Positions 62,951-63,234 of a stretch of 64,000 bases of DNA are shown one piece after another. The stretch lies in assembly GCA_030528605.1 (NCBI GenBank), contig JAUMYO010000004.1, positions 2,546-66,545 of the forward strand, in the 5' to 3' direction. The notes beneath the pieces were generated by a model that saw only the letters and a list, made by a program, of their open reading frames with translations, had not been told where the DNA came from and made no database searches. The stretch comes from Peptostreptococcaceae bacterium (GTDB lineage Bacteria > Bacillota > Clostridia > Peptostreptococcales > Filifactoraceae). Each line of letters opens with the position of its first letter. The stretch's first letter is position 1. Made by a program: the position numbers and the translations under genes.

Positions 62951-63020
62951 TTTTTGCTCCTTTCATTTGAAAGAAGTACGATCCTATGGTATAATGGATA
63001 TAGAAAGATACTTCTTTCAA
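62927..63020. repeat. direct repeat A, copy 1 (Rha 5' end, SD, palindromic promoter region)
   Basis: About 94 bp, nearly identical to 63617-63710 (3 mismatches in the 80-bp core by eye). Contains the 12-bp inverted repeat TTGAAAGAAGTA / TACTTCTTTCAA. Confidence 0.9.
62967..62995 (+). promoter_or_regulatory. plus-strand promoter of the predicted antisense sRNA (copy 1)
   Basis: TTGAAA, 17 nt, TGgTATAAT (extended -10 consensus). Confidence 0.6.
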
Positions 63021-63068
63021 GGTGTAGAGTGTTGTTTTCGTTGGTAGCGGGACAACACTCTATTTTTT
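63002..63068 (+). ncRNA. predicted ~67-nt convergent antisense RNA (copy 1)
   Basis: Consensus promoter followed by the terminator TAGAGTGTTGT-16 nt-ACAACACTCTA-TTTTTT. The U-tract overlaps the RHH-1 stop codon. Confidence 0.5.
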
Positions 63069-63234
63069 ATTTCTTTTCTTTTATTTCTTGATACACTTTT
63101 TCGATCCCTTCAACAATGATGTTTGCTCTTGTTGTGTTTTTTGCATCCGCACAGACTTGCAGCCTTTCTAATTCATCCTCTGCCAGTCGCACGGTTATTT
63201 GTTTATTCCTTGCATTGTTCGTTGGTCTACCCAT
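63067..63234 (-). CDS. ribbon-helix-helix (Arc/CopG-like) protein, RHH-1
   Basis: Below the track cutoff; MGRPTNNARNKQITVRLAEDELERLQVCADAKNTTRANIIVEGIEKVYQEIKEKK*. Confidence 0.65.
   Translation of the reverse strand: MGRPTNNARNKQITVRLAEDELERLQVCADAKNTTRANIIVEGIEKVYQEIKEKK

Follow-up and report, generated by a model that had tools for sequence, protein, structure and literature searches.

We analysed a 64,000-nt stretch of contig JAUMYO010000004.1 (assembly GCA_030528605.1) from a Peptostreptococcaceae bacterium, referred to below as the window, and in particular a short predicted antisense unit that opposes a prophage gene for a Rha-type regulator. All coordinates are positions within this 64-kb window, strands are given as (+) or (-), and the features are collected in Table 1. 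On the (-) strand, a 55-amino-acid (aa) ribbon-helix-helix (RHH) protein, RHH1, is encoded upstream of a 312-aa Rha-type protein; these two genes and the 116-nt spacer between them had been named in the original prediction made for this DNA, and the list of open reading frames (ORFs) agrees. The 312-aa protein matched Pfam PF09669 Phage_pRha (E 6e-23), and its best PHROG matches were to anti-repressor and Rha-like regulator families (E 4e-22 to 5e-21) with the names 'anti-repressor', 'anti-repressor Ant' and 'Rha-like transcriptional regulator'. RHH1 alone gave a sub-threshold match to Pfam RHH_1 (E 0.066) and a match to PHROG 876 'transcriptional repressor' (E 8e-13). A profile built from 11 RHH1 homologues, five of which matched Pfam RHH_1 (best E 1e-5, a weak similarity), matched the solved RHH proteins 2kel (1.8e-4), ORF56 of pRN1 (9e-4) and CopG of pMV158 (0.018). 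Therefore, the RHH label of the 55-aa protein is justified by the PHROG 876 match together with the profile matches, and, judged by such matches, RHH1 is CopG-like rather than Arc-like.

The (+) strand of the spacer carries a near-perfect promoter with an extended -10 element. This site and its duplicate at 63657-63685 (described below) were the two best sigma-70 matches on both strands of the 64 kb and the only sites to reach a score of 12.5; the score is our own sigma-70 score, for which shuffled sequence yields 0.075 sites of at least 12.5 per 64 kb. The promoter is followed by a hairpin (SL2) with a fully complementary stem and a run of six T residues, and the 69-nt stretch 63002-63070, which holds the predicted antisense RNA (asRNA-1) with its 5' stem-loop (SL1) and SL2, folds with -26.6 kcal/mol (z = -6.05). 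We infer from these elements that the RNA is expressed. On the (-) strand, the same hairpin is followed by CACCUUGAAAG and no U-tract. The T-run of asRNA-1 overlaps the RHH1 stop codon (63067-63069), and the RNA ends ~38 nt short of the Shine-Dalgarno (SD) region of the Rha gene, covering neither the SD (62957-62964) nor the start codon. In all of these points (the promoter, the terminator with its 11-bp stem and T6, the missing (-) strand U-tract, and the uncovered SD and start codon) the original prediction had read the spacer correctly. The RNA region contains no small hydrophobic ORF and the genes opposed are those of an RHH protein and the 312-aa Rha protein, which sets the locus apart from type I toxin-antitoxin systems. 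The predicted antisense RNAs of the window and of 18 of the related loci described below matched no Rfam 15 family at threshold.

Homologues of the Rha-type protein were taken from IMG/VR (78 loci) and from GTDB genomes (23 loci), and these loci are referred to by L-numbers where they must be told apart. A cassette was called where an antisense promoter with a score of at least 10.5 was followed by a terminator, and it was found that 33 of the 78 distinct upstream regions of Rha homologues contained one. The antisense promoter abuts the SD of Rha in 23 cases and, in the other 10, the SD of a leader ORF of 38-41 aa ahead of Rha. Of the 243 gene starts with an SD in these loci, only two that are not Rha starts had this arrangement (~1%), and both look like further cassettes. 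The cassettes fall into ~10 unrelated sequence families with a constant geometry: the -35 element lies 12-24 nt from the start codon, and the predicted RNA is 60-85 nt long, consists of a 5' hairpin and a terminator, and has its end at or within the stop codon of the 44-60 aa gene that lies upstream. This upstream gene is interchangeable and encodes an MGRP-type RHH, a CopG-like RHH or an AbrB/SpoVT-like protein. The recurrence of the layout in about 10 families bears out the earlier proposal that the RHH gene, the convergent gene for a ~67-nt RNA and the Rha gene would make up one regulatory unit.

When both strands of all loci were scanned without bias, 39 distinct candidate RNAs were obtained, and every one was antisense to the direction of the operon. 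No consistent sense-strand promoter was found inside the cassettes (scores of 6.5-9, which is the background level), and most cassettes have no sense-strand U-tract after the hairpin; therefore, the RHH and Rha genes are probably co-transcribed. In the closest relative, locus L090 of a Peptostreptococcaceae metagenome-assembled genome, the promoter, SL1 and SL2 are kept at ~90% identity, whereas the Rha protein is only 53% identical and a 124-aa protein is encoded directly upstream instead of the RHH protein. Therefore, the non-coding cassette is conserved as a unit. According to the records, the hosts of the cassettes are Fusobacterium, Cetobacterium, Helcococcus, Anaerococcus, Peptostreptococcaceae and Peptococcaceae. 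Fusobacterium phage Funu2 (KR131711; host strain Fusobacterium nucleatum 7_1) carries the cassette, unannotated, among its tail genes at ~8262-8373, between an unnamed 57-aa coding sequence and a gene for a 'Rha family regulatory protein'. The earlier remark that this is not a described switch of Firmicutes phages was too narrow in naming Firmicutes, because many cassettes lie in Fusobacterium and Cetobacterium elements; as to novelty, no description of the cassette was found in the literature searched, and with the incomplete coverage of that search this is weak evidence.

Not every Rha/Ant gene has the cassette: in the staphylococcal phages whose Rha N-terminal domains are the closest (PH15), its place is taken by a real divergent protein-coding gene. 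At the DNA level, the exact pattern of the full window palindrome had 0 matches in IMG/VR, the exact 21-mer of SL1 matched only L025/L079 in IMG/VR and had 0 matches in GTDB genomes, and blastn of the region matched nothing but the HNH gene among INPHARED phages and had no match among PLSDB plasmids. Six metagenome matches to the exact pattern look like chance, as there is no promoter or terminator around them and several are eukaryote-like.

Some observations suggest that the RNA itself counts, in addition to its promoter. Their 5' hairpins, a feature not used for detection, are more stable than shuffled sequences (mean z -3.0). A covariance-model search of relatives, as suggested in the original prediction, was made with a model built from seven RNAs, in which only SL2 was modelled because the MAFFT alignments did not keep the structural register of SL1 and of some SL2 stems. 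This model recovered the untrained cassettes of L003, L004 and L032 at ~55 bits, as well as those of L016, L044, L041, L101 and the second copy in the window (copy 2; copy 1 is that of the RHH1-Rha spacer). In the model alignment, 95.9% of the cells of the terminator stem are paired and 8 of 11 pairs have compensatory changes, a result matched by 0 of 500 shuffles. The loop motif YUUGG..GG of SL2, or its complement, is retained while the stems change completely; in its strict form, TTGG(N1-3)GG or the complement, it occurs in 9 of the 39 SL2 hairpins against 1.0 expected, and a variant, GUUGGUAGCGGG, is present in copy 1.

In the mRNA sense, four segments can be told apart in the Rha leader, of which the first and second are complementary to the antisense RNA, the third is an anti-SD and the fourth is the SD. 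The opener (or pre-emptor) and anti-SD arms are the two 21-nt arms, 63000-63020 and 62967-62987, of a near-palindrome around the antisense promoter, and on the DNA the anti-SD arm coincides with the -35 element and spacer of that promoter. In the free window leader, positions 63020-63000 pair with 62987-62967 and GAAAGGAG is open, with a probability of being unpaired of 0.74; masking of the asRNA target lets CUUCUUUC (62976-62969) pair with GAAAGGAG (62964-62957), and this probability falls to 0.00. L001 and L006-8 respond to such masking with a similar drop in SD accessibility. Complementarity between the asRNA-coding region and the promoter/anti-SD region was present in all families (mean z -3.8), and the proximal leader alone sequesters the SD, which is unpaired with a probability of 0.14 as compared to 0.59 at 244 gene starts used as controls (Mann-Whitney p 4e-10). 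The natural opener opened the SD in 10 of the 16 cassettes tested, whereas dinucleotide-shuffled openers did so in 0-6% of trials. Directly after the closing hairpin formed by SD and anti-SD, the window has CAAAAAAUG and the other cassettes are A-rich, and, since there is no U-tract, the effect would be on translation and not on termination. The leader hairpin that sequesters the SD and the near-palindrome with 21-nt arms go beyond the original prediction, as do a 95-nt duplication and an antisense unit upstream of RHH1 that are described below.

Two other pairings were considered and rejected. Direct pairing between the asRNA and the Rha SD had a mean z of -0.64 (in the window, -10.6 kcal/mol, p 0.08) and was not retained as a general mechanism. 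Pairing of an SL2 arm of asRNA-1 with rha codons 6-9 by way of the exact 11-nt repeat TGTTGTTTTCG (62923-62933, 63030-63040) is probably due to chance, as L090 does not have the repeat conserved and one such repeat would be expected by chance.

On balance, we favor the interpretation that the locus is a single unit of a phage regulatory cassette which is conserved and would function in the manner of a plasmid copy-control module. The ORFs, the promoter, the terminator and the complementarities on which it is built are observed in the DNA, as is their conservation. In the proposed mechanism, a (-) strand operon would encode the 51-aa protein, the CopG-like RHH repressor and the Rha-type regulator, which is often annotated as an antirepressor, and the near-consensus promoter on the opposite strand of the RHH-Rha spacer would make a ~67-nt countertranscript that consists of a 5' stem-loop and a terminator and ends at the RHH stop codon. 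The anti-SD would pair either with the upstream opener, leaving the SD free, or with the Rha SD, which would then be closed. The countertranscript, complementary to the opener and not to the SD, would bind the opener, so that the anti-SD would go to the SD and Rha translation would be blocked; this direction of regulation is the one suggested by the leader folds. The RHH protein probably represses the operon promoter, which would place Rha under dual control by a repressor and an antisense RNA.

Table 1. Features of the Rha locus, with positions in the 64-kb window.
Feature	Position	Strand	Basis or remark
Antisense promoter TTGAAA-17-TGgTATAAT	62967-62995	(+)	11/12 matches, extended -10
asRNA-1, predicted ~67-nt antisense RNA	63002-63068	(+)	start placed from the -10 position
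SL1 of asRNA-1 (5' hairpin)	63003-63008 with 63013-63018	(+)	
SL2, terminator of asRNA-1	63025-63035 with 63052-63062, then T6 63063-63068	(+)	11-bp stem, 100% complementary
Opener (pre-emptor) arm of sense leader, inside asRNA target	63000-63020	(-)	13+6 bp hairpin with anti-SD arm in minimum free energy fold
Anti-SD arm of sense leader	62967-62987	(-)	core CUUCUUUC, 62976-62969, pairs with opener or SD
SD region GAAAGGAG of Rha-type gene	62957-62964	(-)	start codon 62950-62948
Rha-type regulator (antirepressor-like) gene, 312 aa	62012-62950	(-)	ORF list, Pfam, PHROG
RHH1, 55-aa CopG-like RHH protein	63067-63234	(-)	ORF list, PHROG, homologue profile
51-aa ORF, first gene of operon, function not assigned	63357-63512	(-)	ORF list
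Likely operon promoter TTGACT-17-TATAAT	63571-63599	(-)	11/12 consensus matches
Perfect palindrome TGCAATTGCA in spacer of operon promoter	63582-63591		candidate RHH operator (putative role)
Hairpin and U6 past rha stop codon, likely operon end	61956-61994	(-)	-18.9 kcal/mol, z -4.4
Second block copy: rha codons 1-8, SD, antisense promoter (63657-63685), SL1	63615-63709	(+)	96% identical to 62925-63019
asRNA-1' of copy 2, predicted	63692-63757	(+)	-24.1 kcal/mol, z -4.7
Truncated rha' remnant ORF, 14 aa, MELVKIEKNFYKSS then stop	63596-63640	(-)	
RHH2, second RHH protein, 53 aa	63756-63917	(-)	36% identical to RHH1
Second antisense unit, upstream of RHH1	63264-63358	(+)	fold -22.3 kcal/mol, z -3.3
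Promoter of second unit, TTGCCT-17-TGcTAAAAT	63264-63292	(+)	
Hairpins of second unit	63298-63325 with T6; 63337-63352 with T6	(+)	

Several observations weigh against this interpretation or limit it. The RNA asRNA-1 is a prediction from the sequence, and its putative start site is placed from the -10 position. The family counts are not phylogenetically independent. The covariation of the terminator stem, which was counted on a model-fitted alignment, is expected of any terminator. Taken alone, the complementarity between the promoter region and the SD is modest (mean z -1.4), and the inverted repeat has no consistent strand asymmetry across families, which is compatible with a role at the DNA level. 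In 6 of the 16 cassettes (L005, L017, L043, L036, L026 and L009) the SD was closed under every modelled condition; therefore, the switch model does not hold for all cassettes. The AbrB-type cassettes and L042 have an SD that is closed by default and that opens (0.47-0.85) only on masking of the first 20 nt past the upstream stop codon, which a ribosome terminating there would cover; for the AbrB-type cassettes this points to coupling with upstream translation and not to a simple on/off action of the asRNA. From these folds, translation of the upstream gene may be the opener in these cassettes, and the RNA would block that opening.

The same elements can be read in other ways. The antisense promoter might act by transcriptional interference or insulation against sense polymerases coming from the RHH gene, with the RNA as a by-product that has no pairing role: polymerase bound at or firing from 62967-62995 would block or collide, and the terminator would merely shield the RHH gene from antisense read-through. 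A near-consensus promoter that faces the operon right before the target gene, with a terminator directly after it, fits such an arrangement, and convergent-transcription effects are documented in pIP501 (PMC5703833). Interference could also coexist with an RNA mechanism and is a plausible contributor, but alone it leaves unexplained the conserved 5' hairpin, the constant RNA length of 60-85 nt, the loop motif that is kept across changing stems, and the complementarities among opener, anti-SD and SD together with the shuffle controls, and we consider it an unlikely account of the cassette. It is somewhat harder still to credit that the inverted repeat 62967-62987/63000-63020 is a DNA operator through which a dimeric repressor (the RHH or AbrB neighbour, or a prophage repressor) switches the antisense promoter, the RNA folds being incidental. 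Inverted repeats do flank the -10 element in all families, they fold without a consistent strand preference across families, and small RHH and AbrB proteins bind DNA. However, the repeat varies independently of the adjacent protein: one and the same repeat stands beside RHH1, RHH2 and the 124-aa gene of L090, and L090 and L001 differ in their repeats with near-identical RHH beta-strands. Moreover, one arm mimics the complement of the SD, which would be needless in a protein operator, and of the four mismatches in the window repeat, two become G-U pairs on the sense strand alone (-17.5 vs -12.0 kcal/mol). A better operator candidate, which does co-vary with the RHH type, sits in the spacer of the operon promoter, where the palindrome is TGCAATTGCA with the RHH sequence KQITVRL and CTTTTGGAACTCA(A/G)AAG with DIKVRIT, although only three types are available. 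This palindrome is therefore a better candidate than that of the cassette for the site of a putative RHH autoregulation.

The promoter might also be symmetric and bidirectional, with the mirror-image sequence TTGAAA-18-CATTAT on the (-) strand (63020-62991) as the real Rha promoter and the (+) arm giving a terminated by-product. The -10 elements overlap on opposite strands, with predicted starts ~18 bp apart, and the (-) strand match is 9/12, but the closest relatives no longer have the mirrored -35 element (CGAAAG in L090, CTGAAA in copy 2), a sense-strand promoter does not recur in other cassettes, where scores of 6.5-9 are at background, and an mRNA starting at ~62984 would be without the opener, its SD permanently closed. 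We regard this as very improbable. Lastly, promoter-like and terminator-like sequences might simply have come together in an AT-rich spacer, and consensus scans do yield many weak promoter-like matches in the region (19 observed vs 8.4 expected). Against such an accident, the promoters are the top-scoring ones in 64 kb (vs 0.075 expected), the block is duplicated within the window, and the layout is found in 33 of 78 loci vs ~1% of other gene starts. Given the promoter rank, the gene-start background and this recurrence, chance is effectively refuted.

The preferred reading, a cassette of the copy-control type, can be compared with known countertranscript systems. In pT181 and pSK41, a countertranscript of 83-87 nt with two stem-loops is complementary to the leader upstream of the start codon (~100 nt upstream in pSK41) and does not cover the ribosome-binding site (RBS); its binding removes a 'pre-emptor', and an RBS-containing stem-loop then forms just before the start codon (PMC5703833). 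In pSK41, it is RNAI that induces the RBS-sequestering stem-loop (PMC5703833). The leader switch found here in silico has the same four-segment logic, with pSK41 as the closest match: blocking the leader upstream of the RBS brings about sequestration of the RBS (SD 0.74 to 0.00), a likeness of mechanism and not of homology. Unlike an attenuator of the pT181 type, the closing hairpin has no U-tract, and the effect is likely translational as in pSK41. The target here is a phage Rha-type regulator, whereas in those plasmids it is a Rep initiator, and a gene for a Cop-like protein lies directly upstream, which is absent in pT181.

The best Rfam match of copy 2 was RF00242, ctRNA_pT181 (32.2 bits, E 0.025 in a 0.9-kb search), and the same family was independently the best Rfam match of the Funu2-type locus L017 (33.7 bits, E 0.006). 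The two alignments each cover the model from end to end and have the loop ACUUUGGUC(A/G)G in common; the recognition loop of RF00242 is ACUUUGGUCAGGG. The architecture of two stem-loops and a U-tail is found in all cassettes. Copy 1 had no match to RF00242 at E up to 5 and eight other cassette loci had none at E up to 10, and with a reciprocal covariance model a genuine pT181 countertranscript ranked second with a score that was not significant (14.1 bits, E 0.22). Because the scores are below the gathering score of 56 bits, copy 1 is unmatched and the reciprocal score is ~14 bits, the RNA was not filed in the ctRNA_pT181 family.

In pMV158, the target of RNAII lies immediately upstream of the repB translation signals and not over them (PMC4485353). 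The order copG-RNAII-repB is like that of the window: a small RHH repressor gene lies upstream of the target gene, co-oriented and probably co-transcribed with it, and a terminated countertranscript is predicted in the intergenic region, with its target upstream of the translation signals. In contrast to RNAII, which is 48 nt long and has one hairpin and a 5' tail, the RNA predicted here is ~67 nt long with two hairpins; the regulated gene is Rha in a prophage and not a rolling-circle Rep gene, there is no PLSDB DNA match, and the similarity to CopG is weak.

The sar RNA of phage P22 is ~69 nt long and covers the RBS of ant. The original prediction had likened the window to the P22 immI region, and as a functional analogy this stands, as in both a small RHH repressor gene precedes an antirepressor-type gene and a small antisense RNA opposes the junction. 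The immI region is a moron-like insert near late genes (PMC2629481), and similarly the operon of the window adjoins packaging genes and the Funu2 cassette lies among tail genes. The likeness does not extend further: the predicted RNA falls ~38 nt short of the SD and leaves the RBS uncovered, no Arc or Mnt chain was among the PDB matches listed for the RHH profile up to E 10, the best of which were CopG/ORF56-type, no divergent Mnt-like gene is seen inside the window, and the hosts are Gram-positive anaerobes and Fusobacteria. By this comparison, the cassette appears to be closer to the plasmid countertranscript systems (pT181, pSK41 and pMV158) than to P22 sar. In the IsrK/orf45/anrP region of Gifsy-1, translation of an antirepressor-type gene is set jointly by a small RNA of the prophage, by alternative structures of the leader and by an upstream ORF (PMC4825925); IsrK differs from the RNA proposed here in that it acts in trans, activates and is encoded on the sense strand, and there is no sequence relationship.

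The genes for the 51-aa protein, RHH1 and Rha appear to form a self-contained operon (63599-63571 to ~61961), as there is a likely promoter in front of them and a hairpin with U6 after rha. The operon promoter has counterparts in L001, L042 and L090, which also have small ORFs homologous to the 51-aa ORF in the equivalent position; this ORF had no family match in Pfam or PHROG. The RHH gene has no obvious SD. The operon is located at the edge of a prophage, with portal, MuF-like, terminase, capsid, tape-measure and tail genes at ~43.4-61.9 kb (PHROG), whereas positions 1-43 kb of the window are host chromosome with genes for ValRS (with a T-box), PheT, ClpB and GlmU. In L090, the operon lies between a 176-aa ORF (809-1339), the C-terminus of which resembles sigma-70 region 4 (ArpU-like, judged by eye), and a 168-aa ORF (3359-3865) taken by eye for a small terminase subunit; if these labels are right, the Rha cassettes are at the early/late boundary.

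The window contains a second copy of a 95-nt block of the cassette (62925-63019), 690 bp upstream. The RNA predicted from it has an SL1 identical to that of copy 1 and a different SL2 (63715-63753, then T5), the loop of which carries ACUUUGGUCGG, and its T-run overlaps the stop codon of RHH2. The stop codon of the truncated rha' remnant falls within the -35 element of the operon promoter. It looks as if the segment with the 51-aa ORF, RHH1 and a cassette had recombined into an older unit consisting of RHH2, a cassette and rha.

The second antisense unit, upstream of RHH1, is arranged in parallel with asRNA-1, its final T-run overlapping the stop codon of the 51-aa ORF as that of asRNA-1 overlaps the RHH1 stop. 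The regions upstream of RHH1 and RHH2 are repeated (81%), and a counterpart of the second unit lies before RHH2 at 63947-64000; the promoters of the two are TTGCCT-17-TAAAAT/TAGAAT, and the predicted RNA is ~60 nt long. GGCAAG is found in the loop of the first hairpin, and two copies of CTTGCC, at a distance of 11 bp, lie across the -35 region. Two-hairpin versions of 66-68 nt are present in L001, L002 and L042, an 81-nt version with GGCAAG in the loop of the first hairpin is present in L087, and the promoter block is ~90% identical in L090.

Tandem stacking was seen on the IMG/VR contig of L025 (4697-5700), where a 19-aa remnant of the next target (MLSQEEKIAMKFVEIQECS and a stop codon) comes after an RHH gene and a cassette like that of the window, and then a promoter, an AbrB-like gene, a further cassette, the intact 91-aa gene and a 253-aa gene. 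Therefore, the cassette may also gate genes other than Rha. The cassette seems to be a recombination hotspot.

A broader proposal, which we put forward tentatively and with less than even confidence, is that there is a widespread, unannotated family of phage countertranscripts in Fusobacteria and in anaerobic Gram-positive cocci and clostridia, perhaps sharing ancestry with the pT181-type countertranscripts, that gates translation of Rha/Bro-type antirepressors by a pre-emptor/anti-SD switch with interchangeable RHH/AbrB mini-repressors, and whose units stack in tandem, recombine at the cassette and leave behind truncated 5' ends of target genes. If so, these units would be exchangeable, immunity-like specificities, possibly setting the threshold of induction or the outcome of superinfection for prophages of the gut and mouth. 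Antirepressors decide whether prophages remain silent, and to our knowledge little is known of how they are themselves silenced outside P22, P1 and a few enterobacterial cases. If the cassette works as proposed, these phages reuse a plasmid copy-control design, a mini-repressor and a countertranscript with a pre-emptor switch, which would set a threshold on the Rha-type regulator. The hosts are Fusobacterium, Anaerococcus, Helcococcus and Peptostreptococcaceae, which are frequent inhabitants of the human mouth and gut and difficult to work with genetically, and the cassette would give a concrete, testable handle on the control of induction in their prophages. It would also provide a new antisense RNA family for annotation, absent from Rfam 15 and from the published annotation of Funu2, an example of regulatory modules that shuffle between plasmids and phages, and compact parts for synthetic gene control in these hosts.

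Some further features of the window were noted. A T-box leader (Rfam RF00230, 108 bits) is found at 39683-39885 (-), upstream of the valyl-tRNA synthetase gene (36996-39647). The junction between host and prophage is probably at 42600-44050, as the host genes for a histidine phosphatase and a cation efflux protein end at ~42.6 kb, and a gene for a peptidase M15/VanY-like protein, a probable endolysin, is present at 43402-44043. The region 56465-61915 (-) has an unusual gene order, consisting of HNH endonuclease, portal, MuF-like, three small ORFs and terminase large subunit, so that the gene for the terminase large subunit lies on the other side of the portal gene than its usual place; the analysis records it as downstream, not upstream, of portal. 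The C-terminal stretch of the MuF-like minor head protein (58705-60015, (-)) matched the ADP-ribosyltransferase toxin families PHROG 3895 and 802 (E ~1e-6).

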